64,000 bases of DNA from the NCBI GenBank assembly GCA_017405765.1, contig JAFQZS010000005.1, positions 25,042 through 89,041 on the forward strand, written 5' to 3'. Every line of letters begins with the position of its first letter. Position 1 is the first letter of the stretch. A program made the position numbers and the translations under genes. The stretch is from Clostridia bacterium (lineage in GTDB: Bacteria > Bacillota > Clostridia > Oscillospirales > RGIG577). The notes beneath the pieces were generated by a model. It made no database searches. It saw only the letters and a program-made list of their open reading frames with translations, and had not been told where the DNA came from. This document shows positions 2,323 to 37,924 of the stretch, one piece after another.

Positions 2323-3138
2323 ATGGGATATTTTAAATTTTTAAAAGAATCTACGCTTGATATTTTCCGCAACATGCGGCGAATATGGTCGCTTGCGGTA
2401 TTTGAATATAAAAGAGCCAATACCGATATGTTTTTGGGCGGGCTTTGGAAGTTTTTATCCCCGCTTTTGCAGATAGGCGTGTATTGGGTCGTTTTTGGAA
2501 TAGGGTTGAGGAATAATTCCGATATGAACGGGTTCCCGTTTGTGCTTTGGCTCACCTGCGGCCTTACGCCGTGGCTTATGATGAATCAGGGCGTGAATAC
2601 AGGCGCGGCGTCTGTCTTCAGAAAGGCGGGACTTCTTACAAAGTCGAATTTAAAAATGTCTATGATACCCGTAAGTTCGGTGCTGTCGGCGATCTTGAAT
2701 CAGATATGGACGGTGCTTATTCTGTTTGCAATATTTCTCCTTACGGGAGGCAGGATCTGGTGGACGTGCCTTGACCTGATATACTACGTTGTGTTCATGT
2801 TCGTGTTCGTGTCTGCTCTTTCTCAGGTCACGGCGGCATTTGTTGTGCTTGCGCGTGATTTTCAGAAGGTAGTGCAGAATGCAATGCGATTTCTGTTTTT
2901 CTTAAGCCCTATATTTTGGGAGGCTAATCCCAATATGCCATATGTGTTCCAGGTTTTTGACAAACTCAATCCTTTCGCATATGTTATAAGAGGCTTCAGG
3001 AACGCCATGCTCTATCACGTGCCGTTTTGGCACGAGATGAAGCTCGTCTGCGCATTCTGGCTGGCCGCAATAATTCTTCATATGATCGGCATTGCGCTTC
3101 AGATGAGGCTTCGCAACAACGTATTGGATTACGTATAA
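2323..3138 (+). CDS. ABC-2 type polysaccharide/teichoic-acid exporter permease (Wzm/TagG/KpsM-like)
   Basis: 271 aa, polytopic and hydrophobic (about 6 TM). Family-typical stretches include GGLWKFLSPLLQIGVYWVVFG and LNPFAYVIRGFRNA. It sits directly upstream of its ATPase partner. Confidence 0.8.
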   Translation: MGYFKFLKESTLDIFRNMRRIWSLAVFEYKRANTDMFLGGLWKFLSPLLQIGVYWVVFGIGLRNNSDMNGFPFVLWLTCGLTPWLMMNQGVNTGAASVFRKAGLLTKSNLKMSMIPVSSVLSAILNQIWTVLILFAIFLLTGGRIWWTCLDLIYYVVFMFVFVSALSQVTAAFVVLARDFQKVVQNAMRFLFFLSPIFWEANPNMPYVFQVFDKLNPFAYVIRGFRNAMLYHVPFWHEMKLVCAFWLAAIILHMIGIALQMRLRNNVLDYV

Positions 3139-3148
3139 GGATTATATT

Positions 3149-4303
3149 ATGGACGAATATGTAATAACAGCAAAAAATATTGAAAAAGAATATAAAATAT
3201 ATAGTAAAAAATCGCAGAAGTATCTTGATTTTTTTCTGCCGAAATCCTTTGGCACATCATTTTATGCGCTTGACAACGTTTCCTTTAATGTAAAAAAAGG
3301 GGAGTCGCTTGCGCTTATCGGTCTAAACGGCAGCGGGAAAACGACGTTGGCAAATATACTTGCAGGTGCGGCGGAGGTGTCGGGCGGAGAGCTTGAGACA
3401 AAGGGCAAGGTATCTATGATAGCCGTAAACGCGGGCGTCGATCAGTTTCTTACCGGTATGGACAACATAGTCCAAAAGGGCCTCATGCTCGGCCTGGATC
3501 ACAAACAGATACAGGAGCGCATACCCGAGATACTGGAATTTGCCGACCTGGGAGACTTTATCCATCAGCAGGTAAAGACATATTCGAGCGGTATGAGGGC
3601 AAGGCTCGGATTTGCCATTTCGATAAATATAGACCCCGATATAATGATAATAGACGAGGCGCTTTCCGTGGGCGACCCCACGTTTACTGAAAAATGTCTT
3701 GCGAAGATGAATGAATTCAGAAAAAACGGTAAGACGATAATATTTGTGAGCCATTCGATACCTCAGGTGCGAATGTTTTGCGATACGGCGCTGTGGCTTG
3801 AAGGAGGAAGAGTTAGAGAAGCGGGAAACTGCATGGACGTTACGTCGAAATATGTAAAGTTTGTACGCGATTTCAACTCGCTTGATAACGCCACGAGAAA
3901 AAAATACGTAAACAGCATTCGTGAGCGTCAGAGAAGAAAGGGCGACGGCGCGGTCGCAAAAGAGATACTCGAAAGCATGGAGGGCAAAGTCGAAGAAGGC
4001 GATATCACGGAGGCAAATCCCGAGGCTTACGTTGATATACCGGAATACGAGCTCGAGCTTGAGCATAAGGATAACGGAGAGCTCGTGATGCGGGCGGCGG
4101 GCGAACGCTGCGACAGCGTGCGCTTTGCCTGGTATATATATAAAAAAGGAGAGAAGAACCCGACAGTCAAAATGCCATACAAGTATGAACAGGAGAGCAC
4201 ATATACATTTGAAGAATCCGGAACATACAGGGCAAGGCTTTTCCTTTTGGCAAACGGCGAGATCAATATGATCACATCCGATTGGTTTGAGGTGGAGTTG
4301 TAA
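3149..4303 (+). CDS. ABC exporter ATP-binding protein (Wzt/TagH/KpsT-like) with a C-terminal extension ending in the shared module
   Basis: Walker A GLNGSGKTT, signature YSSGMRARLGFA, Walker B IMIIDEALSVGD and H-loop FVSHS. About 135 extra C-terminal residues end in RFAWYIYKKG...SGTYRARLF. SD AAGGA lies upstream. Confidence 0.85.
   Translation: MDEYVITAKNIEKEYKIYSKKSQKYLDFFLPKSFGTSFYALDNVSFNVKKGESLALIGLNGSGKTTLANILAGAAEVSGGELETKGKVSMIAVNAGVDQFLTGMDNIVQKGLMLGLDHKQIQERIPEILEFADLGDFIHQQVKTYSSGMRARLGFAISINIDPDIMIIDEALSVGDPTFTEKCLAKMNEFRKNGKTIIFVSHSIPQVRMFCDTALWLEGGRVREAGNCMDVTSKYVKFVRDFNSLDNATRKKYVNSIRERQRRKGDGAVAKEILESMEGKVEEGDITEANPEAYVDIPEYELELEHKDNGELVMRAAGERCDSVRFAWYIYKKGEKNPTVKMPYKYEQESTYTFEESGTYRARLFLLANGEINMITSDWFEVEL
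4043..4300 (+). repeat. Shared protein module, copy A (tail of the ABC ATPase)
   Basis: RFAWYIYKKG -27 aa- GTYRARLF. Confidence 0.6.
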
Positions 4304-4400
4304 AGAAGGGTAATGTTTTCTTAATTAAAGAATACTGTCAACATTGAAAAAGTCTTATTAAACATACAATATTTTCTCATTATGTGTTAAGGAGAACGAT

Positions 4401-7400
4401 ATGTCTTATAACGAAAACGATACCATTAATAAAACGGAAGTCGAATCAGGCAATGAACGCAATATGCAGAGTATTTCTTCGGAAGAAAAAGAACTTGACA
4501 CTTTAAGAAACGCCTACGCCGAGCTTTTAGATAAAATAAGCGCGCTTAACAACGAAAATTTGCGTATGCAGGCGCAGCTTAAAAAATCAGATGCACAGAT
4601 GAGAAAACTGCTCGATGAGAACGGCCGTATTAAGAAGCGTCTGTCGCAGGAAAAGGCTGCTGCGGAAAAAAATCTGCGCCGCTATGAGCAGGTCAATGCA
4701 AAATATGAAGCGCTTGCGAACTCGAAGCTTGGCAGGCTTACCTTGAACCATTGGGCGAAGCAGTCAAAAAAGAAAGGCGCAGGCAAGGGGATAGCAGGAC
4801 TTCCCGCAGTGGAGAAGTATTTTGATAAGCTGCCGACTGCGCAGGAGCTTGATCCGGAAATTGCTGCCTTGGATGAAGTTCCTGTAAGCGCGGACGACGC
4901 CAATATAGACAGAAATGCGCTTGAAACTTGGGTATATAAATATGATGAGGCGATAGAAGCACTGCCGGACAGCAACGGCATACGATATTACAATAAGGCG
5001 CAGTGCAGTATAGGAATTATTGCGGACGAGTTTTTTTACGAGTCCATAAGCGACGCGGCCGATTTCGTTTATGTTACGCCCGAAAACTATGAGAGCGTTA
5101 TAGCGGGAAAAGAAATCGACGTCTTGCTTTTTGTATCTGCTTGGCGCGGGCTTAACAATGAGTGGACAGGCATGGCTCAGTTAAACTCCAATCGGCGCAG
5201 CGTTGCCCTTGACCTTATTGCAAAGTGTAAAGAAAACGCCATACCGACCATATTCTACTCAAAAGAGGATCCGCCAAACTACGAGCGGTTTATTGAATAT
5301 GCAAAGCAGTGCGACTGTGTTTTCACGTCCGCATCGGAATGTATACCGTATTACAAAGAAGATTGCGGGCATGACAGAGTATATGAGCTTATGTTCGGTA
5401 TAGATCCCGCCGTACATAATCCCATAGGATTCTATAAAGAAGAAAAAGATAAAACCGTGCTCTTTTCCGGTTCGTGGATGGAGAAGTATCCCAATAGATG
5501 CAGGGAGCTTTCTTTGATATTTAACGGTATACTGCGCTCGGATTATGACCTCCATATAGTTGACCGTAATTACGGCAATGAAAGGTATCAATATCCGCCG
5601 CAGTACAATCGCTATGCATCTCCCGCCGTAGATCATAAAAAACTTCAGAAGCTGCACAAGCAGTTTGACTGGGCCGTAAACATCAATTCCGTAACGGACA
5701 GCGAAACAATGTTCGCAAACCGCACGTTTGAGCTTCAGGCTGCGGGCGTACTTCTTTTATCAAATTACAGTGTCGGCGTAAACAATGTGCACCCGACGGT
5801 GTTCATGGCTCATGAATCGCTTGAAGTCGATAAGATACTGCAAGGATTTACGGATGAGGAGCGTTACGAACATCAGATCGCGGGCATACGCTCCGTTATG
5901 ACAGGGCATACATGCTTTGACAGGATCGAGTCGTTATTGGCGCCTATAGGTATAGACGCCGCTCAACCCAAAAGAAAGATACTTGTAATTGCACAAACGC
6001 TTGACGACGGCGTTAAGGCGTCGTTTGAGCGTCAGACGTATGAGAACAAAACGCTTATGCTGCAGTCAGAAATAAACGGCGAAGTTTTATCGCAGTATGA
6101 TATGGTAACATGGTTCGACGCCGGCGCATATTACGGAGAGTTTTATCTTGAGGATATGATAAACGCCTTTAAGTATACGGCCTGCGACTATATTACGAAG
6201 GACGCATATTTTAAGGACGATATATTGAATGCAGGCACAGAACATAATTATGTAAATAAAATGCGCAGTGCTTACCGCACCGTATTCTGGCGTGAAGCGT
6301 TCGATTCAGAATTTTTCTTAAGCGTACCCTCCGAGTGCGAGCTGCCAGGCGGATATTCTATAGACCGCTTTTCTTACCGCGAAGGCGCGCACGAGACGCC
6401 TGTCCGCGAAAAACCGTATCTTTTATCGGTGATAATTCCTGTATACAATAACGGCGCGCACCTTTACGGCAAGTGCTTTGCAAGCCTTAGACGCAGTTCG
6501 ATGTTTGACGACATGGAGATAATAATGGTGGACGACGGCTCCACCGATGAGCGGACATTGAAAATTGAAACGTATCTTTCCGACCGATATGCGAATGTAA
6601 AAAGATATGCCTTTGAAGACGGCGGAAGCGGTTCGGCTTCCCGTCCCAGAAATAAAGGCGTTGAGCTTGCTTCGGCTGAGCATATCACTTTTTTGGACCC
6701 CGACAACGAGGCTATTGATGACGGTTACGCTCAGCTTTATACATATGTGTGTGATGAAAACCTTGACATAGCGTTCGGAAATATATATCGCTGCACAGAA
6801 AAAACGCAGTTGTTTAATTATTATTACAATATCGGCAGACGCGCGGGAACGACCTTCTTTGAGCATGGGCTTAAGGAATATATGGCTCGCACCGATTTTT
6901 ATGCGGTCAGCATTCAGGCCATGATAATACGCCGTGAGATCATTATGAAAAACGGTTTTGAACAGGTGCCGGGCGCAGCCGGTCAGGATACGCTCTTCTG
7001 CTGGCAGCTTTTCTCTTGCGCAGACAGAATACGCGCTTTGGAGTTTCCAATACATATATACTATGCGCAGACGAGCGGTTCGGTAACCAATGCCGTAAGT
7101 ACGAAGTTCTTTGATAAGCTTATGCTGCTTCAGCAGCCAAAGATAGACTGGTTAATAAGTGAGAATCTATTAGAAGATTATATGCGTACGCGTCACGATA
7201 CATACGTTAAGGGTTGGATATTCCAGAAGCTGAGCCGTGCGAGAGAGGAAGAGCTGTGTACAAAGAAGGTCAAGGAAATACTGGATCTGTACGAACCGTA
7301 TTATAAGCGGACAGATGAGCTTATAAATGAGTTTATTAAGGATTGCGAAGACGAAAAGTATAACGATGCATTTTCGCTTGTAAAAAAAGAATTTGCAGAA

Positions 7401-7796
7401 ACCAAAAAACGTCCCATGCCTACGCTTGAGGAACTGACAGAACAGATAAAGGCAGATAAACAAAGGCAGAGCACGCCTAAACAGTTCGATATAAGATATA
7501 CGATAAACGGCAGCAAGGTAAGCCTTACTAATTTAAGCAGATCGAAAAAAGGCGCACAATATGCGTGGTCGGTGTTGTTTGATACTAAAACGTATAAAAA
7601 AGTATACGTATCAAAATATACAAACAGTAATAATTTTAGTTATGATTTTTCTGATCTGTCGGAGGGCAAGTATAAAATCAGAGCGTTTATAATGCGCGGC
7701 GGCGATAAAATATCTGAGGATACATTGTATATTACGCTTACGCATGATAGAATAATATTCGTAAACAAGAATTTATCATTAGCTGTCGAAGAGTAA
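4401..7796 (+). CDS. Multidomain glycosyltransferase: N-terminal coiled coil + CgeB-like GT module + GT2 (GT-A) module + C-terminal shared module
   Basis: 1131 aa. Res ~25-115 is a heptad-rich coiled coil (LDTLRNAYAELLDKISALNNENLRMQAQLKK...). The CgeB-like module has FYSKEDPPNY and VLFSGSW. The GT2 signature is SVIIPVYNNGAHL, IMVDDGSTD and FLDPDNE. The tail carries QYAWSV...GKYKIRAF. SD AAGGAG lies 8 nt upstream. Confidence 0.75.
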   Translation: MSYNENDTINKTEVESGNERNMQSISSEEKELDTLRNAYAELLDKISALNNENLRMQAQLKKSDAQMRKLLDENGRIKKRLSQEKAAAEKNLRRYEQVNAKYEALANSKLGRLTLNHWAKQSKKKGAGKGIAGLPAVEKYFDKLPTAQELDPEIAALDEVPVSADDANIDRNALETWVYKYDEAIEALPDSNGIRYYNKAQCSIGIIADEFFYESISDAADFVYVTPENYESVIAGKEIDVLLFVSAWRGLNNEWTGMAQLNSNRRSVALDLIAKCKENAIPTIFYSKEDPPNYERFIEYAKQCDCVFTSASECIPYYKEDCGHDRVYELMFGIDPAVHNPIGFYKEEKDKTVLFSGSWMEKYPNRCRELSLIFNGILRSDYDLHIVDRNYGNERYQYPPQYNRYASPAVDHKKLQKLHKQFDWAVNINSVTDSETMFANRTFELQAAGVLLLSNYSVGVNNVHPTVFMAHESLEVDKILQGFTDEERYEHQIAGIRSVMTGHTCFDRIESLLAPIGIDAAQPKRKILVIAQTLDDGVKASFERQTYENKTLMLQSEINGEVLSQYDMVTWFDAGAYYGEFYLEDMINAFKYTACDYITKDAYFKDDILNAGTEHNYVNKMRSAYRTVFWREAFDSEFFLSVPSECELPGGYSIDRFSYREGAHETPVREKPYLLSVIIPVYNNGAHLYGKCFASLRRSSMFDDMEIIMVDDGSTDERTLKIETYLSDRYANVKRYAFEDGGSGSASRPRNKGVELASAEHITFLDPDNEAIDDGYAQLYTYVCDENLDIAFGNIYRCTEKTQLFNYYYNIGRRAGTTFFEHGLKEYMARTDFYAVSIQAMIIRREIIMKNGFEQVPGAAGQDTLFCWQLFSCADRIRALEFPIHIYYAQTSGSVTNAVSTKFFDKLMLLQQPKIDWLISENLLEDYMRTRHDTYVKGWIFQKLSRAREEELCTKKVKEILDLYEPYYKRTDELINEFIKDCEDEKYNDAFSLVKKEFAETKKRPMPTLEELTEQIKADKQRQSTPKQFDIRYTINGSKVSLTNLSRSKKGAQYAWSVLFDTKTYKKVYVSKYTNSNNFSYDFSDLSEGKYKIRAFIMRGGDKISEDTLYITLTHDRIIFVNKNLSLAVEE
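7485..7739 (+). repeat. Shared protein module, copy B (tail of the 1131-aa glycosyltransferase)
   Basis: QYAWSVLFDT -30 aa- GKYKIRAF. Confidence 0.6.
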
Positions 7797-7814
7797 TTCT
7801 GAGAGGAGACTAAT

Positions 7815-8084
7815 ATGGAAATAAAAAGTATAGATGCGTTCGACCTGTTTCATAACGGTACGATCGTATTAAAAACCAATACAGAAGAGCTTTCCGAGGG
7901 GTATGTTTTCGCATGGCGCGTGATAAACAAAAAGAACGACAAAACGGTATTTAAAAGCGGATATATTTCCGATCCGTTTATATCATGTAAAATCAAAGGT
8001 TTTGGCGATTATACGATAACGGCATATGTCCTTAATGAGAAAAACGGCGAAAAAATAAGCGCTGAGACGGAGTTTACGGCAGAT
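7815..8084 (+). repeat. Shared protein module, copy C1 (stand-alone protein, first half)
   Basis: VFAWRVINKK -27 aa- GDYTITAY. Confidence 0.55.
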
Positions 8085-8390
8085 AAAAATACGTCGTACG
8101 CTCTTACGAGCGGATACAGTGAGATAGCGGAGATAGAGCCGATCGCTGAACATATAAGCGGACCGTTCTGGCGCTTTTCTCCGGATAGTGAACCGCCAAA
8201 GGACGCTCAATTTGCATGGTACATATATAAAAAAGGCGATGTCGATCCTATGCATAAGCAGATGTTTACCGAGTTTCCCACATATGAATACAAATTTACA
8301 CAGGAGGGAACGTACAGAGCAAAGCTGTTTATCAGCTTCAAAAAAGCAAAGCGCAGTGAGTTTTCGGATTGGTTTGACGTTGTGCTTTGA
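7815..8390 (+). CDS. Stand-alone protein made of two tandem copies of the shared module (no catalytic domain recognised)
   Basis: 191 aa. Copy 1 has YVFAWRVINKK...GDYTITAY and copy 2 has QFAWYIYKKG...GTYRAKLF. SD GAGGAG lies 7 nt upstream. No signal peptide or TM segment. Confidence 0.7.
   Translation: MEIKSIDAFDLFHNGTIVLKTNTEELSEGYVFAWRVINKKNDKTVFKSGYISDPFISCKIKGFGDYTITAYVLNEKNGEKISAETEFTADKNTSYALTSGYSEIAEIEPIAEHISGPFWRFSPDSEPPKDAQFAWYIYKKGDVDPMHKQMFTEFPTYEYKFTQEGTYRAKLFISFKKAKRSEFSDWFDVVL
8127..8387 (+). repeat. Shared protein module, copy C2 (stand-alone protein, second half)
   Basis: QFAWYIYKKG ... GTYRAKLF. The DNA core at 8211-8236 is 24/26 identical to 4124-4149. Confidence 0.6.
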
Positions 8391-8408
8391 TTTTGTTAGG
8401 AGTTAAGT

Positions 8409-9605
8409 ATGAAGTATCCCGTTAAAAGGCTTTCCGTGGAAGAACTCAACAAAGAACCCTTTTGCCCGGAACAGCCTACCATTTACGAAATCATCTGGGG
8501 AAAAACAAAATATGAGCTTCTCGTAAACTATGTACCCAATTCGCGAAAAATGGCAGCTTTCGGTACGGGCACGGTCAACAGGAACAGAGGTCTGCCTGAT
8601 TTTAAGCGCAACAGCTGGTACCCTGATATACCGGTCACCTCGATATGGTATGCCGACCCTACGCTTTACGAGGGGGAGTTGTCGCTTTACTGGTATTACG
8701 GCACCAACAAAAGATGGCATCTTAAGAATATTGCCTTCTTACTGGCTGCGATCGCAAAAAAGCATATGATCTCTTTGGAGGACTCTCTGTTTTTCGGTTC
8801 ATCGGGCGGGGGCTACTCTTCGCTCGTGCTTGCGACATTGCTTCACGGCAAGGCTTATGTAATAAATCCGCAGATATTTTTGGAAAATTATTTTGAGGCT
8901 CATTATAAAAAGTTCCTTGCAGACGTATTGTCAAAGGGCGAGAAGCCGGCAGAAGAACGCATAAGTATTATTTCTCTTTTTAAGGCTGAGCGTTATATAC
9001 CCAGAATACATTATGTACAGAACATGCAGTCCGTACATGATATACGTCTCCAGGTGACGCCGTTTCTTCGCGGAATATCCGAAGGAAATATGGACTGCAG
9101 CGATACTATAAGCATGGAGTTTTTCTATGCGGAGGGCGGTCATAACGCTATGCCCGACAAGGATCGTTCGCTTGTGCTGATAGCGCGCGGATTAGAGGAT
9201 AAGGCAACGGGCGTTGCGATAAACGCCGACGAGGAAAAGCATCAAAAGCTCACCTTCTTTGAACGAGTAAGCTGCGCGGATTTTAAAAATACGGGCACAT
9301 ATCTTCTGTTTGACGAGCTTGATGAATTCGGCGCAGTCTATAAGGGCGCGAAAACTGAGATATCGTCGGGAAATCTGTGTTATGATCTTGCGATCCCGAA
9401 ACGATCTGTGTCGGGATATACGTTTTCATATTATCTAATGGCAGACAAAGTAACGGCGGCCAAGCTTCCATATTCGGACAGCACAAAGGCGGAGTTTAAA
9501 CTTCTGTCGCCGGGACGATACAAGATAAAATGCTTTGTGCTGAAAGATGACGCAAAGCTTTCATTCGTATCAGACGAGATAACAGTCAAATCAACTGACG
9601 TTTAA
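8409..9605 (+). CDS. Alpha/beta-hydrolase-fold protein (putative glycan esterase/acyltransferase) with C-terminal shared module, paralog 1
   Basis: 398 aa with nucleophile elbow FFGSSGGGYSS and a candidate catalytic His in YAEGGHNAMPDK. It is ~55-60% identical by eye to the next gene over the catalytic part. SD AGGAG upstream. No signal peptide. Confidence 0.6.
   Translation: MKYPVKRLSVEELNKEPFCPEQPTIYEIIWGKTKYELLVNYVPNSRKMAAFGTGTVNRNRGLPDFKRNSWYPDIPVTSIWYADPTLYEGELSLYWYYGTNKRWHLKNIAFLLAAIAKKHMISLEDSLFFGSSGGGYSSLVLATLLHGKAYVINPQIFLENYFEAHYKKFLADVLSKGEKPAEERISIISLFKAERYIPRIHYVQNMQSVHDIRLQVTPFLRGISEGNMDCSDTISMEFFYAEGGHNAMPDKDRSLVLIARGLEDKATGVAINADEEKHQKLTFFERVSCADFKNTGTYLLFDELDEFGAVYKGAKTEISSGNLCYDLAIPKRSVSGYTFSYYLMADKVTAAKLPYSDSTKAEFKLLSPGRYKIKCFVLKDDAKLSFVSDEITVKSTDV
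9345..9602 (+). repeat. Shared protein module, copy D (tail of hydrolase paralog 1)
   Basis: TFSYYLMAD -25 aa- GRYKIKCF. Confidence 0.55.
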
Positions 9606-9619
9606 AAAGGAGTAGTTCT

Positions 9620-10819
9620 TTGGATTACGATATCAGAGAGTTAAATATAGAAGATATATATAAAGAGACGTTTAAACCAAAAAAGATCACGCTTTATAAA
9701 ATAATATGGGACGGAGTGACTTATGATTTTCTAATAAATCATGTGTCGGGCTCCAAAGTCATGGCGGCGTTCGGCACGGGAACGATGTCGAACCGTGCCC
9801 TGAAGCTTCCGTTTTTTGCAAGGTTGAGCTGGTATCAGAGTATCCCAGTGACCTCGGTGTGGTACGCAGACCCCACGCTTTATGAGGGGAAGCTGAAGCT
9901 TTATTGGTATTACGGCACGAATAAAAAATGGTATCTTGAAAACATAGCCTTTCTTTTGTCCGTCATATCGAAAAATATGGGCGTTGATGTTGCCAAGTCG
10001 CTTTTTTTCGGCTCATCGGGCGGCGGATATTCTTCGCTCGTGCTTGCAACGATGCTGCGCGGCAAGGCTTATGTGATAAACCCGCAGATTTTTTTGTACA
10101 ATTATAATGAGATACATTATAAACGTTTTGTGGCGGACAGGTGTCCCGAAGGAGAAAAACCGAAAGAAGAAAGAACGAATCTCTTAAAGCTGTGCGAGCG
10201 TGAGCGCTATATACCAAGAACATACTGCCTGCAGAATATACGCGACGTGCGTGACATTGATAAGCAAATAACGCCGTTTCTCTCTGAGATAGCCCATAAC
10301 GCCTACGATTGCGGTGAGGCTGTTACAATGGACTTTTATTACGACGAAAAAGGCCACAACGGTATGCCTGACAAGGCGACGACGCTTGAATTTATTAAAA
10401 AAGGCCTCTTGGACAAAAGAAAAGGCAAGGAGCTCTTGCTTGAGAAAAGATCCGGCAATAGTCTTAGCTTTTTTGAGCGCATTTACGATCTCAACTTAAG
10501 AAGCGCTGATGCGCATATAACGTATGCTAACAAAACGAAGCCGCACGAGATCATGAAGGGCGTAAATATCGAGTGGCAGAAGGACGGAAGCCTTTTATGC
10601 ACTGCCGAAACGTATACGCAGTCAGAGGATTATCTGTTTGCCTTTAATCTTATAAGCTCCAAAAACCGCATATACAAAAAAAGGGCATATTCTCCCGAAA
10701 AGTCGTGCCGGTTTGAAGGTATACCCGATGATACATATACATTGAATAGTTTTGTAAAATCCGGAGCCATCACCGAGATGGTAAAAGTCGTTATTCCCCC
10801 CAAAAAAACGGAGGTATAA
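9620..10819 (+). CDS. Alpha/beta-hydrolase-fold protein with C-terminal shared module, paralog 2 (tandem duplicate)
   Basis: 399 aa with FFGSSGGGYSS and YDEKGHNGMPDK. The TTG start is supported by AAGGAG 8 nt upstream and by N-terminal alignment with paralog 1. Confidence 0.6.
   Translation: MDYDIRELNIEDIYKETFKPKKITLYKIIWDGVTYDFLINHVSGSKVMAAFGTGTMSNRALKLPFFARLSWYQSIPVTSVWYADPTLYEGKLKLYWYYGTNKKWYLENIAFLLSVISKNMGVDVAKSLFFGSSGGGYSSLVLATMLRGKAYVINPQIFLYNYNEIHYKRFVADRCPEGEKPKEERTNLLKLCERERYIPRTYCLQNIRDVRDIDKQITPFLSEIAHNAYDCGEAVTMDFYYDEKGHNGMPDKATTLEFIKKGLLDKRKGKELLLEKRSGNSLSFFERIYDLNLRSADAHITYANKTKPHEIMKGVNIEWQKDGSLLCTAETYTQSEDYLFAFNLISSKNRIYKKRAYSPEKSCRFEGIPDDTYTLNSFVKSGAITEMVKVVIPPKKTEV
10559..10816 (+). 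repeat. Shared protein module, copy E (tail of hydrolase paralog 2)
   Basis: LFAFNLISS -26 aa- DTYTLNSF. This is the most divergent copy. Confidence 0.45.
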
Positions 10820-10917
10820 ACACGAACCGTTAACGGCGGTGATCTCAATTCCGCAGGACGAGCTGTTTTTTGAGAAACCGATAATCAATGGGTCTAAAAT
10901 AAATATTGACAAGCAAA

Positions 10918-13023
10918 ATGAAGAATACAGAGTATGAGTTTGTACCGTTTTCGGGTGAAGTTACTCAAAATAATTTCAAAGAAGAATTGAATAATGGCTT
11001 TTATATACCTCCTCAGTTCTATTTCAGCAGCAAAGAAATACCAAACACCGCAAAGAGCATTACGGAAGGCGTTTTGTTTGTCCATCGTGCTGTTTCGGGA
11101 GTTGAGTATGACCTTGAAACGTTCGACTGGAATTTATCGGTCTCAAAACAGGCGGAAACGTTTCAATTATATCTTCAGGCATTAACACCTGTTGCAGTGT
11201 TGGCAAGAGCATATGAGATGACCGGCAACAGGAGTTTTCTTGAGTTTGCAGAAAGAATGATCATAGAATGGTGGAAATATGCTTCTGATAAAAAGAGTTC
11301 AGATGAAAACCGCAGAGTTTGGACAGATCATTCCGTTGCGTTAAGAACGGAGATCCTTATGTATTTTGGTCGTGTGATCAAGACGGCCGGATATGGAAGT
11401 GACGAGCTATATTCTTCGCTTTATGATATACTCAATATTCAAGGTAAGTGGCTTTACGAAACGCCGGGTTATGCAAAGAATCATAATCACGGCATAATGC
11501 ACGATAAAGGCTTGTTGTTTTTAAGCGTTCAACTTAAGAAAAAAGAATGGTACCTTAGAGCAAAGAACCGTATTTTAACCCAAGAGAAATGGGCGTTCGC
11601 CGCTGATAACGTACATAAAGAAAATTCTCCCGCTTATACCGGCGTGGCAAGAAATTGGTTCATAGATATCGGCACGTTTTTGTCAGAATGGGGAGATCCG
11701 GCCGGCGATAAGATACTCAAAGACATGGAAAGGGTGCAGGAATATATCGATTGGGCTACGAAGCCTAACGGTATAATAGCGCAGGTGGGCGATACCGGAA
11801 ACATACCTGGCAAAAAATACGGTTATCCTGACAAAATGAAACGGCGATCGAAGGATATACACGCCATGTTTCCTGTAAGCGGCATATATTTCTATCGCTC
11901 AAATATCGATAGTGAAAGTATGCTTGATACATGGAAAACGATAAAGTCGGGATTCGTCAGAAAAACGCATAAGCATGCAGATGACGGTTCGTTTATTCTT
12001 TATTCAAAAGGATATGAAATTTTCGTTGACTGCGGCGTATACGGATATGCAAACGATGATTTCCGAAAATATATAATATCGGCAAAAGCGCATAATACGG
12101 TGATCGTAGACGATGAGTCATACGATATAGATGAAAAAAATGCAGAGCGCGCAGGTGTAGAGGGATGGGCGTTTTTTGAGGAATATGACCATATAAGAAC
12201 GTTTAATAATATATATCCCGGAGTACAGATAAAAAGAGATTTTTGTTCAGCCGATGATCTGACGATCATATATGATTCTTTGGAATCCGAACAACAGCAT
12301 ACTTATTCGCAGCTGTTTCATTTGGGAGAAGATATATCCGTTTTGTCTTCCGATGACAGAGAAGTCGTGATGCAGATTGCCGACACGGATCACATCGTGC
12401 GTATAAGACAGCACGGTTCTCCCGTTAAGCTGTCAATATTGTGCGGCGATTTGAGCAAATCCGATTATGGCCTTATATCGAGAGGGATAAATCATTTAGA
12501 CGTAATATCCACTCTGAAATTTGATATAAGCGGCACAAATGCAGAATTTATTACGTCAATAACAATAGAAGATACTAAAGGCAATATTAGATTGTATGAT
12601 AAAACAGTTCCTGTTGATAGTCTCGTATATAAGTCCGAAGAACGCACGTTTGAGATAGATTCGCTGAGAATAAACTGCAAAGAGGAGCTTTTTTCGGCCG
12701 GTCAGATATCGAAACGAGTATCATATGGCAACGATAAAAGTGACGCCATATGCGGTTTTGTTTACGGATACGGTTATAAAGTCGTTGAAAATGAATTAAG
12801 GTTCTCCCTTGATCTAAAAGAAGATAAGCCAAAAGACGTTGAATTTGCCTATTATTTGCTCAGCGGAGGGAAAATACTAAGAAAAGCAGGATATTCAAAG
12901 TGCGAAAGTGTGGTATTCGACGAGATAAAGCGCGGCAATAGTTATCGAATCAAATATTTCATAAAAAGAAAAACAGAAAGAATGGCGTTTGTGTTAAAAG
13001 AAACTGAAGATTTTAATATATAA
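10918..13023 (+). CDS. Heparinase II/III-like (alginate-lyase-like N-terminal plus Hepar_II_III C-terminal) protein with C-terminal shared module
   Basis: Family-typical NHNHGIMHDKGLLFL, HKHADDGSFILYSKGYEIFVDCG and AKAHNTVIVDD. No signal peptide. ATG at 10918 is preferred; the tracked ORF starts at in-frame TTG 10906. No strong SD for either start. Confidence 0.65.
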   Translation: MKNTEYEFVPFSGEVTQNNFKEELNNGFYIPPQFYFSSKEIPNTAKSITEGVLFVHRAVSGVEYDLETFDWNLSVSKQAETFQLYLQALTPVAVLARAYEMTGNRSFLEFAERMIIEWWKYASDKKSSDENRRVWTDHSVALRTEILMYFGRVIKTAGYGSDELYSSLYDILNIQGKWLYETPGYAKNHNHGIMHDKGLLFLSVQLKKKEWYLRAKNRILTQEKWAFAADNVHKENSPAYTGVARNWFIDIGTFLSEWGDPAGDKILKDMERVQEYIDWATKPNGIIAQVGDTGNIPGKKYGYPDKMKRRSKDIHAMFPVSGIYFYRSNIDSESMLDTWKTIKSGFVRKTHKHADDGSFILYSKGYEIFVDCGVYGYANDDFRKYIISAKAHNTVIVDDESYDIDEKNAERAGVEGWAFFEEYDHIRTFNNIYPGVQIKRDFCSADDLTIIYDSLESEQQHTYSQLFHLGEDISVLSSDDREVVMQIADTDHIVRIRQHGSPVKLSILCGDLSKSDYGLISRGINHLDVISTLKFDISGTNAEFITSITIEDTKGNIRLYDKTVPVDSLVYKSEERTFEIDSLRINCKEELFSAGQISKRVSYGNDKSDAICGFVYGYGYKVVENELRFSLDLKEDKPKDVEFAYYLLSGGKILRKAGYSKCESVVFDEIKRGNSYRIKYFIKRKTERMAFVLKETEDFNI
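12772..13020 (+). repeat. Shared protein module, copy F (tail of the heparinase II/III-like protein)
   Basis: EFAYYLLSGG -26 aa- NSYRIKYF. Confidence 0.55.
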
Positions 13024-13101
13024 TATTATCCTTATAGAACGATAAATGATCTGCGTGTTAAATTTGCAATACACTTTTTGAGCGGTAATTTTTTAAATGT
13101 A

Positions 13102-13131
13102 TTGCATTTTATATACGGCATATTATATAAT
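13102..13131 (+). promoter_or_regulatory. Candidate sigma-A promoter for wecB-glmS
   Basis: TTGCAT (13102-13107), 18-nt spacer, TATAAT (13126-13131), in the AT-rich gap upstream of wecB. Confidence 0.35.
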
Positions 13132-13198
13132 AAATATAATATCATTTGTCATTTTATATGCCAAATTGTATAACCTCATAAAAGAAAGGGTTATTTTC

Positions 13199-14317
13199 AT
13201 GAAAAAAGTTATGCTTGTCTTCGGAACGCGTCCCGAAGCGATAAAGATGTGCCCCCTTGTAAATGAATTAAAAAAGAGACCTTCCATCGAGACTGTTGTC
13301 TGCGTAACGGGCCAGCACAGGCAGATGCTCGATCAGGTGCTCGATGCATTTAACGTCGTGCCTGATTATGACCTCTCGGTAATGAAGGAGCGTCAGACGC
13401 TTTTTGACGTTACCTCAAATATCCTGCTTAAGATAAAAGAGGTGCTTGAGGAGGTGAAGCCCGACGTTGTGCTCGTTCACGGCGATACGTCAACTACGTT
13501 CGTTACGGCGCTGGCGTGCTTCTATCTGCAGATACCTGTCGGACATGTAGAGGCGGGTCTTCGCACCCACAACATCTATTCGCCGTTCCCTGAGGAGTTC
13601 AACCGTCAGGCCGTGGGCATAATAAGCAAGTATAACTTTGCGCCGACCAAGGCGTCGAGGGACAACCTGTTAAGAGAAGGCAAGCCGGAGGACTCTATCT
13701 TCGTTACGGGCAATACGGCTATAGACGCGCTTAAAACTACCGTAAAAGAGGACTATACTCATCCGCAGCTTGAGTGGGCGAAGGGAAGCAGACTTATCTT
13801 GATCACAGCACATCGCCGCGAAAATCTGGGACAGCCTATGCGAAATATGTTCCGCGCTATCCGCAGAGTTTGCGACGAGCATCCCGATATAAAGGCGATA
13901 TATCCGATACATATGAACCCTGTTGTACGCGAAACGGCTAATGAGGAATTGGGCGGCGACGAGCGCATTCGTATAATAGAGCCTCTTGACGTGCTTGATT
14001 TCCATAACTTTATGGCTAAGAGCTATCTCATCCTTACCGACTCGGGCGGCATACAGGAGGAGGCGCCCTCGCTTGGCAAGCCTGTGCTTGTTATGCGCGA
14101 CACGACCGAGCGCCCTGAAGGAATACGCGCCGGTACGCTTCAGCTTGTCGGCACAGAGGAAGAGAACATATATCGCACGTTCAAATCACTTTTGGAAGAA
14201 GATCAGTTATACCGCGCCATGAGTACGGCAAGCAATCCGTACGGCGACGGACAGACGAGCCGCAGAATTGCAGATATCCTCGAAGGAAAACGAGAGAATA
14301 TCACATTCGAAGGCTGA
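13199..14317 (+). CDS. wecB: UDP-N-acetylglucosamine 2-epimerase (non-hydrolysing)
   Basis: MKKVMLVFGTRPEAIKMCPL, HGDTSTT, HVEAGLRT and TDSGGIQEEAPSLGKPVLVMRDTTERPEG. The internal ATG at 13199 has SD AAAGAAAGGG upstream. The tracked 13097 start adds an implausible AT-rich extension. Confidence 0.9.
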   Translation: MKKVMLVFGTRPEAIKMCPLVNELKKRPSIETVVCVTGQHRQMLDQVLDAFNVVPDYDLSVMKERQTLFDVTSNILLKIKEVLEEVKPDVVLVHGDTSTTFVTALACFYLQIPVGHVEAGLRTHNIYSPFPEEFNRQAVGIISKYNFAPTKASRDNLLREGKPEDSIFVTGNTAIDALKTTVKEDYTHPQLEWAKGSRLILITAHRRENLGQPMRNMFRAIRRVCDEHPDIKAIYPIHMNPVVRETANEELGGDERIRIIEPLDVLDFHNFMAKSYLILTDSGGIQEEAPSLGKPVLVMRDTTERPEGIRAGTLQLVGTEEENIYRTFKSLLEEDQLYRAMSTASNPYGDGQTSRRIADILEGKRENITFEG

Positions 14318-16200: not shown

Positions 16201-16212
16201 TCTATACTTTTG

Positions 16213-16240
16213 AGGCCGCTCTTGTCGGGCGGCCTTTTTA
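16213..16240 (+). terminator. Intrinsic terminator after glmS
   Basis: Stem AGGCCGC (16213-16219) pairs with GCGGCCT (16229-16235), followed by a U-run. Confidence 0.7.
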
Positions 16241-16261
16241 ATTGCTTTTTTGGATAAAACT

Positions 16262-16297
16262 ACAGCGGCGCGCTATATTCTAGCGCGCCGCTGTTTG
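16262..16297 (-). terminator. Intrinsic terminator after pck
   Basis: Perfect GC-rich hairpin CAGCGGCGCGCT-ATATTC-TAGCGCGCCGCTG. On the minus strand it is followed by TAGTTTTAT. Confidence 0.65.
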
Positions 16298-33834: not shown

Positions 33835-34434
33835 ATGAAAATAATTGCAGGTCTGGGAAACCCGGGCCAAAAATACGCGTTTACGCGCCACAACGCCGGA
33901 TTTCTTTTTATGGATTACATATCACAGAAGTATAACATATCTATCGACAAACTGAAATTCAAGGCGCTTACTGGTCAGGGCATGATAGCAGGCGAAAAGG
34001 TAGTGCTGTTAAAGCCGCAGACGTTCATGAACTTATCGGGCGAAGCCGTATCTGCCGCGCTCGACTTCTACAAGCTTACGACAGACGACCTTATTGTCGT
34101 TTACGACGACATAACCATACCTACGGGACGTATGCGCATACGCCCGAAGGGCAGCGACGGCGGTCATAACGGTATAAAGTCGATAATATACTTAACGGGG
34201 AGCGATGAATTTGACCGTATAAAGCTGGGATGCGGAGCGCCGCACCATGAGGATTTTGATATGGTCGATTTTGTGCTGTCGTCATTTTCACAGGAAGAAC
34301 GTAAGATCCTGTTTGAAGTAATAGAAAATGCGGCCGACGCGCTTTCCCTTCTCGTGCGCGGAGAGAGGCGCGAGGCGCAGAACAAGTATAACGGGCTGGA
34401 CCTTTCACCTAAAAAGGAGGATAAAGAAGGTTAA
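33835..34434 (+). CDS. pth: Peptidyl-tRNA hydrolase
   Basis: MKIIAGLGNPG..Y..TRHNAGF and GSDGGHNGIKS. Confidence 0.95.
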   Translation: MKIIAGLGNPGQKYAFTRHNAGFLFMDYISQKYNISIDKLKFKALTGQGMIAGEKVVLLKPQTFMNLSGEAVSAALDFYKLTTDDLIVVYDDITIPTGRMRIRPKGSDGGHNGIKSIIYLTGSDEFDRIKLGCGAPHHEDFDMVDFVLSSFSQEERKILFEVIENAADALSLLVRGERREAQNKYNGLDLSPKKEDKEG

Positions 34435-34456
34435 GCCCTTCGTTTTGGAGAAAAAC

Positions 34457-37400
34457 ATGTCGCTTAAAAATATACTTGATAAAACAGGCGAATACAAAGA
34501 GGCGCTTTCCCTTATAAAAAAAGGGAGCGTAAGCGCCGTAGCCTTAAACGGATTGTCACAGGTGCATAAGGCGCATTTGTGCGCCTTTTTTTATAAGAAC
34601 ACGAAAAAAAATCTACTTGTGATCGTGCCTGACGCCATAGATGCGCGCGCATTGGCCGCCGATATTGAGGCCTTTTTGGGCGAGGAGCCGCTTATGTTTT
34701 TGTCGCGCTCACTCTTGTTTGAAGACGCGCTCTCTCGATCGTTCACAGACGAGTACGAGCGTATAAGCTCGCTTTCTGTGATGAACGAGGGAAAGAGCAT
34801 AGTTATTGCCGATGCGCCCGCGCTTATGCAGCGATTGCCCGCCCCCGCAGATTTTAAAAGGATGTGCCGCTCGTTTCATGTGGGGAATGAATATGATATC
34901 GACGAGATAGTAACATATCTTTTTGAGGCGGGCTACGAATATGCCGACGCAGTTGAGGGACGCGGCCAGTATTCGCGACGCGGATCGATAATAGATATTT
35001 TCCCGCCTGCGTTCGACTGTCCCGTAAGGCTTGACTTTTTTGATGAGACGCTTGATTCGCTCTCTACATTCGATCCGATAGGTCAAAGGCGAATCGACGA
35101 GATAAAAGAGGCGCACATAACGCCTGCGCGGGAGGTCTTTTTGCCAAAGCCTGCAAGAGACAAGCTCATAAAAAAACTTACGTCAATGTCTCATAAGGCC
35201 GATGCACAGGGCGATGAAAAGTTTTCCTCGCGCTTGTCTGACGAGGCGGAGCGTCTTAAATCGGCAATGCGCACCGTTGCGCTCGACAAGTATCTGCCTC
35301 TGTTTTCGGGCGCGTCGCTTTTCGATTATCTTGACGATGCGGTTGTTGCCGTATCGGAGTATAAGGCCGTAAAGGGCGTGTGTGAGCGTTATGAAACCGA
35401 GACGGCCGAGGATATAGCGCGCGCCGAGGAGGAGCACGCGATAGGTAAAAATACAAATAATATACTTTGCGGTTTTTATGATATTCATGCGCAAATGATA
35501 AAGCGGCCGATAATACATATGGAGTCGCTGGCGCACAATTCCTACGACCACAAGATAGGACGCGAGTTTGACGTTTCGGCATCTGTCATGCCCGCGTTTA
35601 AGTCGGAAGAGGGGCTTTCGGACGATATAAAATACTATAAGCGGCTGGGTTATGCCCAGATAATAACGGTCAAGGATGAGGCGCACGCCAGAGCGCTTAT
35701 CGACCGTCTTTATGAGTACGACGTAGCGGCCTCGTATGAGGAGTCTCCGAAGCCTGCACCGGGCAAGGCAGTAGTGACGTCCGGTACGCTTTCGACGGGA
35801 TTTATATATAAAGGCGCCTTTTTATGCGTATATGTGCAAAGCTCGGCCACGAAGCCGCGCCGCCGCACACGCGCGCCGCAGTCAAAAGATTACGATCCCA
35901 AGGCGCGCCTTCATTCGTTCACCGATCTTAGGGAAGGCGATTACGTAGTCCATCAGAATTACGGCATAGGTCAGTTTGTAGGCATTGAGCGCATGGAGGC
36001 GCACGGCGTACAAAAGGATTATCTGAAGATCGTATATGCCGGAAGCGAGGTACTCTACGTTCAGTGCGACAGGCTCGACATGATATCTAAATATATCGCG
36101 CCTTCGGGCAACGGGAAGGTGCGGCTCGGAAAGATGAGCACGGCGGAGTTTTCAAAGACGAAGGCGCGCGTTCGCGCCGCGCTTGAAACGCTGGCAGATG
36201 AGCTCATAAAGCTTTACCGCGCGCGGCAGACGGCTAAGGGGCATGCCTTTTCGCCCGATTCGGAATTGAGCCGCGACTTTGATATGAAATTCGAATATGA
36301 GGAAACGCGCGATCAGCTGAGGGCGATAGACGAGATAAAAGCCGATATGGAAAAGCCCGTGCCTATGGACAGACTTCTTTGCGGCGACGTGGGTTTCGGC
36401 AAGACAGAGGTGGCGCTTAGGGCCGTATTCAAGTGTGTGCTCGAGGGCAGGCAGGCGGCGATACTCGTGCCGACAACGATACTCGCAAGCCAGCATTATG
36501 CGACAGTTGTAAAGCGTTTTGACGGCTATCCCGTAAGCTGCGAGGTATTATCACGCTTTCGCACGGCGGCTCAGCTTAAAGAGTCAGTCGCGCGCATAGC
36601 CGACGGCCGTGCCGATATCGTTATTGGAACGCACAGGCTTTTGTCGCAGGATATTAAGTTTAAGGATCTCGGTCTTTTGGTAGTTGACGAGGAGCAGCGC
36701 TTTGGCGTTATGCATAAAGAGCGCTTAAAGGAGTTTGCGCTCGGCGTGGACGTGCTCACGCTTTCGGCAACGCCCATACCGCGCACTCTCAATATGGCGC
36801 TCTCGAACGTGCGCGACATGTCGGTCATCGAGACTCCGCCCCAAGACAGAATGCCCGTGACGACTTACGTTATCGAGGAGGACGACAGAGTTATTGCAGA
36901 CGCGATAAGGCGCGAGCTTTCGCGCGGCGGACAGGTATACTTCCTTCACAACCGCACCGAAGACATAGAGAGCGCCGCCGTGCGTATTGAGACGCTGGTG
37001 CCGGAAGCGCGCGTTGCCACGGCGCATGGACGCATGACGGAGCTTGCGCTTTCACGCATAATGAGCGACTTTATAGGCGGCGAGGCCGATGTGCTGGTCT
37101 GCACGACGATAATCGAAACGGGCATCGACATACCTAATGTAAACACACTGATCATAGAGAACGCCGACTATCTGGGGCTTGCCCAGCTTCATCAGATACG
37201 CGGGCGCGTGGGGCGTTCCTCGCGACGCGCCTACGCCTATTTTATGTATAAGCGCGGTAAAGTCGTATCCGAGGACGCGCAGAAGCGGCTTTCCGCGATA
37301 CGCGAGTTCACACAGTTCGGCGCGGGCTTTAAGCTTGCGATGCGCGACCTTGAGATAAGGGGCGCGGGCAATATGCTGGGCGTAAGCCAGCACGGCCATA

Positions 37401-37924
37401 TAGGCAATGTCGGCTACGATATGTACTTAAAGCTTTTGTCGGAGGTCATTGACGAAAAAAGCGGCAAAAAAACCGCCGTGAAGCCCGAATGCAGCGTGGA
37501 GCTTCAGACGGACGCATATATTCCGAAGGAATATATTAAGAATTCCGAGCAGCGAATAGACGTATATAAGCTTATTGCGGCGATAGACGGATTTGACGCC
37601 TCGTTCGACGTGTGCGACGAGCTTATAGACCGTTTCGGAGAGATACCGAAGCCCGTTTTAAGCCTTATAGATATCGCGCTTATACGCGCTCTTGGTGAAA
37701 AGTCGGGCATTACCGAAGTTTCGGAGCGCAGCGGCGTCATTATATTTACTGCGCCTGAATTTGATATGAACGCGGCAGGGCGGCTTTCCGATAAATTCGG
37801 ACGTAATTTTGTTTTAAGCTCCGCGAAGGACGGCGCTCTCTCATTTATGGTGCGTCCCGCGAAGGGGGCGGGCGTGTCCGACACAGCGCTTGAGGTAATG
37901 AAGACGGTAGCGGGAGAAGAATGA
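34457..37924 (+). CDS. mfd: Transcription-repair coupling factor
   Basis: CarD-like GDYVVHQNYGIG, helicase motifs GDVGFGKTEVA, VVDEEQRFG and QLHQIRGRVGRS, plus a TRG region. ATG at 34457 (MSLKNILDK) is preferred; the tracked 34328 start overlaps pth. Confidence 0.95.
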   Translation: MSLKNILDKTGEYKEALSLIKKGSVSAVALNGLSQVHKAHLCAFFYKNTKKNLLVIVPDAIDARALAADIEAFLGEEPLMFLSRSLLFEDALSRSFTDEYERISSLSVMNEGKSIVIADAPALMQRLPAPADFKRMCRSFHVGNEYDIDEIVTYLFEAGYEYADAVEGRGQYSRRGSIIDIFPPAFDCPVRLDFFDETLDSLSTFDPIGQRRIDEIKEAHITPAREVFLPKPARDKLIKKLTSMSHKADAQGDEKFSSRLSDEAERLKSAMRTVALDKYLPLFSGASLFDYLDDAVVAVSEYKAVKGVCERYETETAEDIARAEEEHAIGKNTNNILCGFYDIHAQMIKRPIIHMESLAHNSYDHKIGREFDVSASVMPAFKSEEGLSDDIKYYKRLGYAQIITVKDEAHARALIDRLYEYDVAASYEESPKPAPGKAVVTSGTLSTGFIYKGAFLCVYVQSSATKPRRRTRAPQSKDYDPKARLHSFTDLREGDYVVHQNYGIGQFVGIERMEAHGVQKDYLKIVYAGSEVLYVQCDRLDMISKYIAPSGNGKVRLGKMSTAEFSKTKARVRAALETLADELIKLYRARQTAKGHAFSPDSELSRDFDMKFEYEETRDQLRAIDEIKADMEKPVPMDRLLCGDVGFGKTEVALRAVFKCVLEGRQAAILVPTTILASQHYATVVKRFDGYPVSCEVLSRFRTAAQLKESVARIADGRADIVIGTHRLLSQDIKFKDLGLLVVDEEQRFGVMHKERLKEFALGVDVLTLSATPIPRTLNMALSNVRDMSVIETPPQDRMPVTTYVIEEDDRVIADAIRRELSRGGQVYFLHNRTEDIESAAVRIETLVPEARVATAHGRMTELALSRIMSDFIGGEADVLVCTTIIETGIDIPNVNTLIIENADYLGLAQLHQIRGRVGRSSRRAYAYFMYKRGKVVSEDAQKRLSAIREFTQFGAGFKLAMRDLEIRGAGNMLGVSQHGHIGNVGYDMYLKLLSEVIDEKSGKKTAVKPECSVELQTDAYIPKEYIKNSEQRIDVYKLIAAIDGFDASFDVCDELIDRFGEIPKPVLSLIDIALIRALGEKSGITEVSERSGVIIFTAPEFDMNAAGRLSDKFGRNFVLSSAKDGALSFMVRPAKGAGVSDTALEVMKTVAGEE

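Follow-up and report, generated by a model that had tools for sequence, protein, structure and literature searches.

A conserved, non-catalytic two-domain protein of Wzm/Wzt polysaccharide clusters in uncultured Clostridia, and its possible role as an adaptor in trans

The gene p191 (positions 7815 to 8390, plus strand) lies in a 64,000-nucleotide stretch of a Clostridia genome (contig JAFQZS010000005.1, positions 25,042 to 89,041), hereafter called the window. We find that it encodes a dedicated, conserved, non-catalytic two-domain protein of a Wzm/Wzt polysaccharide pathway, and that one of its domains, the C-type domain, is repeatedly found fused to the ATPase of the exporter or to enzymes that act on the polymer. 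From these two observations we tentatively infer that p191 is an adaptor acting in trans, which would link the exporter to the growing polymer or to the polymer's enzymes, a role that we regard as plausible without calling it probable. In glycan pathways that depend on ATP-binding cassette (ABC) transporters, chain completion and the handover from polymerase to exporter are understood for few Gram-negative O-antigen systems, in which a jelly-roll domain on Wzt reads the terminal cap. Here, an immunoglobulin (Ig)-like domain takes the same position on Wzt, and also forms half of a standalone protein that persists in clusters with a tail-less Wzt.

The p191 frame opens with an ATG and codes for 191 residues, the product being identical to protein P0001; eight metagenomic contigs carry a protein identical to it. 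A Shine-Dalgarno sequence, AGGAG, can be read at 7804 to 7808, 6 nt upstream of the start, in agreement with the initial annotation of this DNA, which had noted a good signal there. The stop of the upstream glycosyltransferase (GT) gene (1131 residues) precedes p191 by 18 nt, and another 18 nt separate its end from the next gene. No catalytic family of Pfam or NCBIfam matched p191, and neither a signal peptide nor a transmembrane segment was found in it, and the earlier description of a protein free of any catalytic domain is upheld. The missing signal peptide also suggests that the protein is cytoplasmic.

A profile hidden Markov model (HMM) of the module that p191 shares with its neighbors was run in a full HMMER scan against 1.84 billion representative sequences. 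It retrieved 411 proteins, among which about 20 representatives (of clusters at 50% identity) have 183 to 198 residues and exactly two modules. A word-indexed profile search with the family alignment added 22 two-module members; a word-indexed search with p191 alone returned only p191, annotated as a hypothetical protein of a Clostridia metagenome-assembled genome. More than 40 distinct relatives of about 186 to 198 residues, 22 to 49% identical to p191, align with it end to end. All of them have an N-type followed by a C-type domain, starting at residue 1, and in none did we detect a signal peptide (by a crude test) or a transmembrane segment. The family N terminus is conserved (M-x-I-x-E-I-E-x-F-D-L-x-G-D-G-T-L-V-L-K-T-N), as are a T-S-P-x-L motif after domain 1 (TSYAL in p191), the start of domain 2 (H-I-S-G-x-F-W-R-F) and, again in domain 2, F-A-W-Y-I-Y and G-x-Y-x-V-K-L-F. 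About 40 columns, the length, the domain order and the start position are kept down to 22% identity. Averaged over all pairs of 42 members, identity is highest in the N domain (44%), lower in the C domain (33%) and lowest in the linker (24%); in 82% of the 861 pairs, the N domain is better conserved than the C domain.

Judged by its sequence relatives, p191 is clearly a real, selected gene, and its family was encountered only in sugar-polymer export clusters of uncultured gut and rumen Clostridia. The initial annotation had named a pseudogene remnant in relatives as something that would refute its reading; since these retain an intact gene of the same length with both domains, p191 is not a remnant and the refutation fails. 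No Pfam or NCBIfam model describes the standalone architecture of an N-type plus a C-type domain. Full-text literature searches yielded no description of a standalone two-domain family of this kind, and nothing relevant on Y_Y_Y or FN3 domains in ABC-transporter-dependent glycan assembly.

Within the window, the module HMM detects seven copies of about 85 residues each in six proteins, all inside 3149 to 13023, and none in the rest of the 64 kb. A single C-terminal copy is carried by a Wzt/TagH-like ATPase, a large polymerase-like GT (GTbig), two hydrolase-like paralogues (hydA and hydB) and a Hepar_II_III-like protein; p191 carries two, at about residues 4-95 and 101-190, with a join of about 15 residues. 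The halves of p191 are mutually 22% identical (E=0.39 with BLAST). Separate N-type and C-type HMMs were built from the N and C halves of 21 relatives, leaving p191 out. With these, the C-type HMM gives 34 to 36.6 bits on the N half of p191 (maximum of 500 shuffles, 5.7), and the N-type HMM 24 to 27.3 bits on the C half (shuffle maximum 7.1). When the HMM is made from the five enzyme tails only, the N and C halves score 31.7 and 39.7 bits (shuffle maxima 9.1 and 6.7). The initial reading of p191 as two module copies and a linker of about 15 residues is thus borne out, with cross-profile scores of 27 to 40 bits against a shuffle maximum of 9.1. That the copies are equivalent is not: the halves are two differentiated types, and the N-type is unique to the p191 family.

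This differentiation is found throughout the family, the halves of every member separating cleanly (about 100 to 127 bits with the matching HMM, about 25 to 35 with the other), and p191 itself scores 95 bits as N-type and 94 bits as C-type. The N-type domain was found in the standalone two-domain family only. The C-type domain also occurs on Wzt (75.3 bits for the ATPase tail of the window, against 26.6 with the N-type HMM; representative P0038), at the C terminus of a GTbig-like protein (P0101, 60.5 bits) and fused to a GSSKGG hydrolase-like protein (P0125, 58.5 bits). In the window, the GT, hydA, hydB and the Hepar_II_III-like protein have generic tails, with 15 to 30 bits for both HMMs. Copy 2 of p191 is 36% identical to the ATPase tail over 91 residues (E=2e-14), by far its best match among the modules of the window, as had been noticed initially, and the link then drawn between p191 and this tail is real, the tail being a bona fide C-type domain (75 bits, against 27 as N-type). 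We considered whether the tail might be a recent in-genome copy of the p191 C domain, and rejected this because it is 33 to 40% identical to the C domains of many genomes. A 964-residue protein (P0056) combines a region 47% identical to the nucleotide-binding domain of the window Wzt with five modules, of which at least three fall within about the first 300 residues. Many long proteins with multiple repeats also contain generic modules; they begin with a hydrophobic segment, a possible signal peptide by the crude test.

The AlphaFold2 model of p191 computed with the family alignment (predicted local distance difference test score, pLDDT, 96.4; predicted template modeling score, pTM, 0.70) consists of two FN3/Ig-like beta-sandwiches of 7 to 8 strands; it was used instead of the single-sequence model, which was poor (pLDDT 55). 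The N-type, Y_Y_Y/PKD-like domain spans residues 2-92 (7818 to 8090), with modeled strands within 3-89, the last at 80-89. It is followed by an interdomain linker, defined from the alignment, of residues 93-108 (8091 to 8138), which opens with the T-S-P-x-L motif, is modeled with a pLDDT of about 90 to 93 and includes a short helix (101-104). The C-type domain spans residues 109-191 (8139 to 8387), its first strand being 109-115. Among PDB structures, Foldseek ranks tandem FN3/Ig pairs highest (tissue factor, IL-10R2, fibronectin Fn7B8, phage lambda gpJ FN3), and no Wzt carbohydrate-binding domain (CBD) is among the top 50.

In comparisons with sequence profiles, p191 scores 17.3 bits with Y_Y_Y (PF07495; E=0.0044, cut-off 26.6 bits), a family matched at E<=0.01 by 15 of 22 family members (best 2.5e-9) and for which several members carry precomputed matches. 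With PKD_3 it scores 19.5 bits (cut-off 26.3), and the orthologue at locus L008 reaches 31.6 bits with Pfam PKD, above the cut-off of 23.5. Among the sequences of solved structures, the family profile has a single match, between its C domain and the PKD domain of 2c26 (E=6.5e-4); the module profile matched nothing significant among PDB sequences. G64-D-Y66 and G165-T-Y167 of p191 are invariant or nearly so in the family. Wzt_C (PF14524) matched neither p191 nor the 384-residue ATPase at E<=0.1, and no carbohydrate-binding module (CBM) family matched p191 at E<=0.1 or any of the 22 members at E<=0.01. By sequence comparison, the module appears to be a divergent Y_Y_Y/PKD domain, and not the jelly-roll CBD of Wzt.

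Usable genomic context was available for 13 loci (the window, equivalent to L001, and L008, L009, L011, L013 to L016 and L022 to L026). A genome scan with a 10-sequence family alignment had given one locus, and a metagenome scan contigs of 1.7 to 2.7 kb only. In all 13, the standalone gene lies in the same type of polysaccharide cluster, which encodes a UDP-sugar dehydrogenase, a WecB-like epimerase and DUF3880/Glyco_trans_1_2 GTs, and in most cases also Hepar_II_III-like proteins. Wzm/Wzt can be seen at 10 of these loci; for the remaining three, the retrieved sequence stops before any such genes. The standalone gene directly follows a polymerase-like GT in six loci (the window, L008, L011, L015, L016 and L023; the GT of L011 is 44% identical to GTbig residues 183-657) and a tail-bearing Wzt in four (L013, L014, L024 and L026); elsewhere, it follows another module-bearing gene. 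Stop and start are often 0 to 30 nt apart or overlapping. The module-carrying enzymes differ widely from one cluster to the next, and the standalone gene is the constant element. It is also present at L008, L011, L015, L016 and L023, where Wzt is tail-less (266 to 272 residues). The proposal of the initial annotation that p191 competes with, or bridges, the ATPase tail is therefore not general, because at least five related clusters combine a tail-less Wzt with a standalone gene.

Two or three standalone paralogues are present per cluster at L009 (3017-3625, 10001-10567 and 10613-11191), L022 (2526-3711) and L025 (3014-4195), which suggests diversified specificity; one of the L009 paralogues has a GTbig-like polymerase gene on either side. 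The next gene downstream of the standalone one (10576-12693 in L016, 7674-9791 in L023, and in L017 to L021) often opens with an N-terminal module and continues into a region of about 620 residues without Pfam match. Proteins of 750 to 753 residues are encoded at L009 and L022, the one of L009 with a weak GATase_7 hint, and the module-first downstream protein might be a polymer-amidating enzyme. The 705-residue product encoded after the standalone gene of L016 was compared with the Hepar-like protein and found unrelated.

How could such a protein act? In the adaptor reading, p191 would be a rigid pair of FN3/Ig-like domains with different roles. The N-type domain would dock on invariant machinery, either the polymerase-like GT, usually the preceding gene, or the Wzm/Wzt core. 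The C-type domain would be a variable and portable recognition unit, operating in cis when fused and in trans within p191. By holding the nascent or finished lipid-linked polymer, or an enzyme that carries it, p191 would couple polymerization and tailoring to export. The CBD of Wzt is essential for the export of capped O antigen and, expressed separately, restores transport by a WzmWzt that lacks it (PMC9445017). The role envisaged for p191 would be functionally analogous, with a different fold and on a separate polypeptide. Methyltransferase-GT fusions at L013 and L024 resemble chain-capping enzymes, and would fit a logic of cap recognition.

Several observations weigh against the adaptor reading. 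All relatives come from uncultured organisms. The characterized domains nearest to the module do not bind glycans: the Y_Y_Y domain of BT4663 is described as a spacer and dimerization domain (PMC5121618), the 2c26 structure (a PKD-CBM44 fragment) is matched at its PKD domain and not at the CBM, and Pfam at E<=0.1 gives p191 no match to Wzt_C or any CBM. Nearly all conserved positions (FAWY, G-x-Y, K-x-F) recur in every module and probably serve the structure. The C domain of p191 (36%) is not nearer to the Wzt tail than are those of other genomes (up to 40%), hence there is no sign of a ligand specificity shared within the genome. Net charge and isoelectric point of modules and family domains reveal no consistent acidic or basic signature, which leaves a simple electrostatic binder of polyanions or membranes unsupported. 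Finally, a simple replacement of the tail in trans cannot be the whole story, because this organism keeps p191 despite the C-type tail of its Wzt.

A more ambitious form of the adaptor reading would place p191 in a class of its own, as a soluble substrate receptor or coupling subunit that serves type-V (Wzm/Wzt) exporters from the cytoplasm and is Ig-like instead of jelly-roll. The C-type domain would read the finished polymer, the N-type domain would attach to the exporter or to the polymerase, export would be licensed by a separate polypeptide, and the tail fused to Wzt would be a secondary fusion of that subunit. We consider this form unlikely. In a still bolder variant, the shared modules would be a code for self-assembly in the cytoplasm, much like cohesin-dockerin, and p191 would be its scaffold.

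The main rival, which seems to us possible if rather doubtful, is an Ig-domain scaffold. The modules would pair with one another and p191, with its two different heads, would be a hub gathering module-tagged enzymes (GT, tailoring enzymes, sometimes Wzt) into a membrane-proximal glycan factory, leaving the glycan itself untouched. The characterized role of Y_Y_Y as spacer and dimerization domain (PMC5121618) fits this proposal, as do the linker function of PKD domains in multidomain enzymes and the tandem-FN3 elbow, typical of protein-binding receptors. At least one other module-bearing protein is present in every locus examined, and at L016 to L021 and L023 the micro-synteny runs from a module-ending gene to the standalone gene to a module-starting gene. 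P0140 starts with a hydA-like part, has modules after it at about residues 300-365 and also matches the Hepar-like protein, so that the module stands between enzyme parts. The set of tagged enzymes, however, is very variable and at times reduced to a single protein, and the polymerase-like GT adjoining the standalone gene has no module in L011, L015, L016 and L023. Moreover, there is no sign of dedicated pairing classes, since the generic tails score equally poorly with both type HMMs, and the abundance of generic modules in long multi-repeat proteins with a possible signal peptide argues that the module is not a dedicated docking system.

Three further explanations are considered. p191 might serve the cytoplasmic Hepar_II_III-like protein or a deacetylase as a subunit, or hold it in check as an inhibitor, and so time the cutting or modification of the nascent polymer. 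The Hepar_II_III-like gene is at most two genes downstream in 7 of the 13 loci, its overlap with the standalone stop being 14 nt at L013 and L014, and Hepar-like or deacetylase proteins often bear modules. In the window, however, two genes separate it from p191, the downstream gene differs in L011, L016 and L023 (a deacetylase, or the unrelated 705-residue protein), and the C-type fusions involve Wzt, a GT and a hydrolase-like protein, not Hepar-like proteins, which together make this explanation quite improbable to us. An extracellular or wall-associated lectin-like protein, leaving the cell by a non-classical route and binding the mature polymer outside, is less likely again. In its favor are the generic modules, abundant in the long repeat proteins flagged as possible signal-peptide carriers, and a GtrII-like (PF14264) polytopic protein of 921 residues with four modules after its membrane domain (L013 14075-16840, L014 12011-14776), whose C terminus would, by the topology of its family, face outward. 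If so, the same module would work on both sides of the membrane; the hydropathy count of the L013 protein is ambiguous, with about 10 segments. Against an extracellular location, no member among more than 40 has an export signal or membrane segment, the conserved N terminus (M-x-I-x-E-I-E-x-F-D-L) is itself a beta-strand, and the C-type domain is fused to a cytoplasmic ATPase. Lastly, the lack of a catalytic motif would suit a non-functional leftover of module duplication, whether a remnant or an unexpressed frame. The conservation of length, order, start and some 40 columns in more than 40 sequences effectively refutes this, and several clusters retain two or three paralogues.

The genes around p191 form an ABC-transporter-dependent surface-glycan cluster, those from 2323 to 13023 lying on the plus strand. 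A Wzm-like ABC-2 permease (2323 to 3138; Pfam ABC2_membrane, E=1.1e-13) is followed by the 384-residue Wzt/TagH-like ATPase (3149 to 4303; Pfam ABC_tran, NCBIfam TagH at 2e-100 and 1e-87, below the curated cut-offs), whose C-type module occupies residues 296-383 or so (4034 to 4297; 100.6 bits with the module HMM). Next comes the 1131-residue polymerase-like GT (4401 to 7796), which, according to Pfam and its translation, has an N-terminal coiled coil, a Glyco_trans_1_2 (GT4-like) region and a GT2 domain, and ends with a generic module at about residues 1024-1118 (7470 to 7754; 108.5 bits, with 24 bits as N-type and 26 as C-type). Downstream of p191 lie hydA (8409 to 9605, alpha/beta-hydrolase-like, 398 residues; generic module at residues 301-398, 9309 to 9602), its paralogue hydB (9620 to 10819, 399 residues; generic module at 309-399, 10544 to 10816) and the 705-residue Hepar_II_III-like protein (10906 to 13023; Pfam Hepar_II_III_C, E=3.6e-26; generic module at 611-704, 12736 to 13017, by the module HMM). 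A WecB-like UDP-GlcNAc 2-epimerase and GlmS come next, and two DUF3880/Glyco_trans_1_2-type GTs are also part of the cluster, the first one cut by the window edge. The longer contig L001, covering the same DNA, adds a GT2 and a UDP-sugar dehydrogenase upstream. From these precursor genes, the polymer probably contains N-acetylmannosamine or a uronic acid.

A consensus terminator scan found no terminator-like hairpin of any strength on the plus strand before 16212, and the first strong one at 16212 to 16236, just 3' of glmS. p191 therefore sits in the middle of a long operon, of which this hairpin likely marks the end. Strong terminator-like hairpins on both strands converge at 16212-16294, between glmS (plus strand) and the phosphoenolpyruvate carboxykinase gene (minus strand), and this pair marks the downstream end of the glycan operon. 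Elsewhere in the window, an open reading frame (ORF) at 34328-37924 has 1198 residues, as does protein P0002, and the two proved unrelated.

The initial annotation had placed p191 between a polymerase-like gene and hydrolases. The position is right; the downstream neighbors, however, are hydrolase-like rather than hydrolases, with a G-S-S-G-G nucleophile elbow and a weak match to the XcbB/CpsF capsule family (E=5e-4, far below the cut-off). A PDB sequence search with hydA gave no significant relative, and L009 encodes a related 516-residue protein with a weak Asp2 match. Rather than hydrolases, hydA and hydB could be O-acyltransferases or esterases that tailor the polymer. The Hepar_II_III-like protein, of the lyase/epimerase type and without signal peptide, is near-constant (window, L008, L009, L013 to L015, L022 and L025), and its gene is sometimes duplicated or fused to a deacetylase; it would be a cytoplasmic polysaccharide lyase-like enzyme within a biosynthesis operon. 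The frame of the WecB-like epimerase (13097-14317) includes a hydrophobic N-terminal extension of about 35 residues (MYCILYTAYYIINIISFVILY…) before the family-typical start M-K-K-V-M-L-V-F-G-T-R-P-E, and the true start is probably an internal Met near 13199.

The polymerase-like GT begins with a long coiled coil (residues 25-125 or so, 4401-4800) that ends in Y-E-A-L-A-N-S-K-L-G-R-L-T-L-N-H-W; a basic stretch comes next. Among relatives whose Wzt is tail-less, this element (…YEDLANSKLGKLQRFWWRKRR) is a separate ORF of 129 to 142 residues overlapping the wzt stop, as seen at L011 (7557-7949), with similar ORFs in L015, L016 and L023. A split-off coiled coil or membrane anchor that works with the exporter is one possibility, and the element recalls the coiled-coil rulers of chain length.

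Both the family and the fusions are well established and offer a testable handle on how polymerization is coupled to export; the function is what we infer. If p191 is a recognition or coupling subunit, the licensing of export can be delegated to a separate soluble protein, and the family would open a way into the assembly of surface glycans by uncultured Clostridia that abound in gut and rumen. A scaffold, on the other hand, would be an example of Ig-domain-mediated organization of a cytoplasmic biosynthetic complex.

Among known systems, the closest functional analogue is the Wzt CBD (Wzt_C, PF14524) of E. coli O9a, Raoultella terrigena and Aquifex aeolicus, a jelly roll that dimerizes by exchange of its C-terminal strand and binds the capped non-reducing terminus of the polymer. 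As in these proteins, the C terminus of the window Wzt carries a non-catalytic beta-sandwich (the C-type domain) in an ABC-transporter-dependent glycan pathway, and the occurrence of this domain both on Wzt and in standalone p191 recalls the CBD working in trans (PMC9445017). Unlike the CBD, the module has no sequence match to Wzt_C and is predicted to be a 7- to 8-stranded FN3/Ig-like sandwich, and p191 is a separate polypeptide that adds a second, family-specific N-type domain. Its hosts, moreover, are Clostridia of the Gram-positive type.

The best Pfam relative of the family is Y_Y_Y, known from Bacteroides hybrid two-component sensors such as BT4663. p191 shares with it the G-x-Y motif described in PMC5121618 and, according to the model, an all-beta Ig-like fold. 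In the sensors, however, the domain is periplasmic, placed after beta-propellers, and serves as membrane spacer and dimer contact, whereas the p191 module is probably cytoplasmic, occurs in tandem, and is standalone or fused to enzymes. The PKD domain of C. thermocellum Cel9D-Cel44A (2c26) is likewise an Ig-like accessory module on polysaccharide-acting enzymes; that context is extracellular and degradative, whereas p191 belongs to a biosynthetic and, it seems, cytoplasmic setting. Tandem FN3 modules (tissue factor, class II cytokine receptors, fibronectin) have a similar two-domain shape (Foldseek template modeling scores of 0.5 to 0.6) and, with 7 to 13% identity and an unrelated biology, provide an analogy of fold only.

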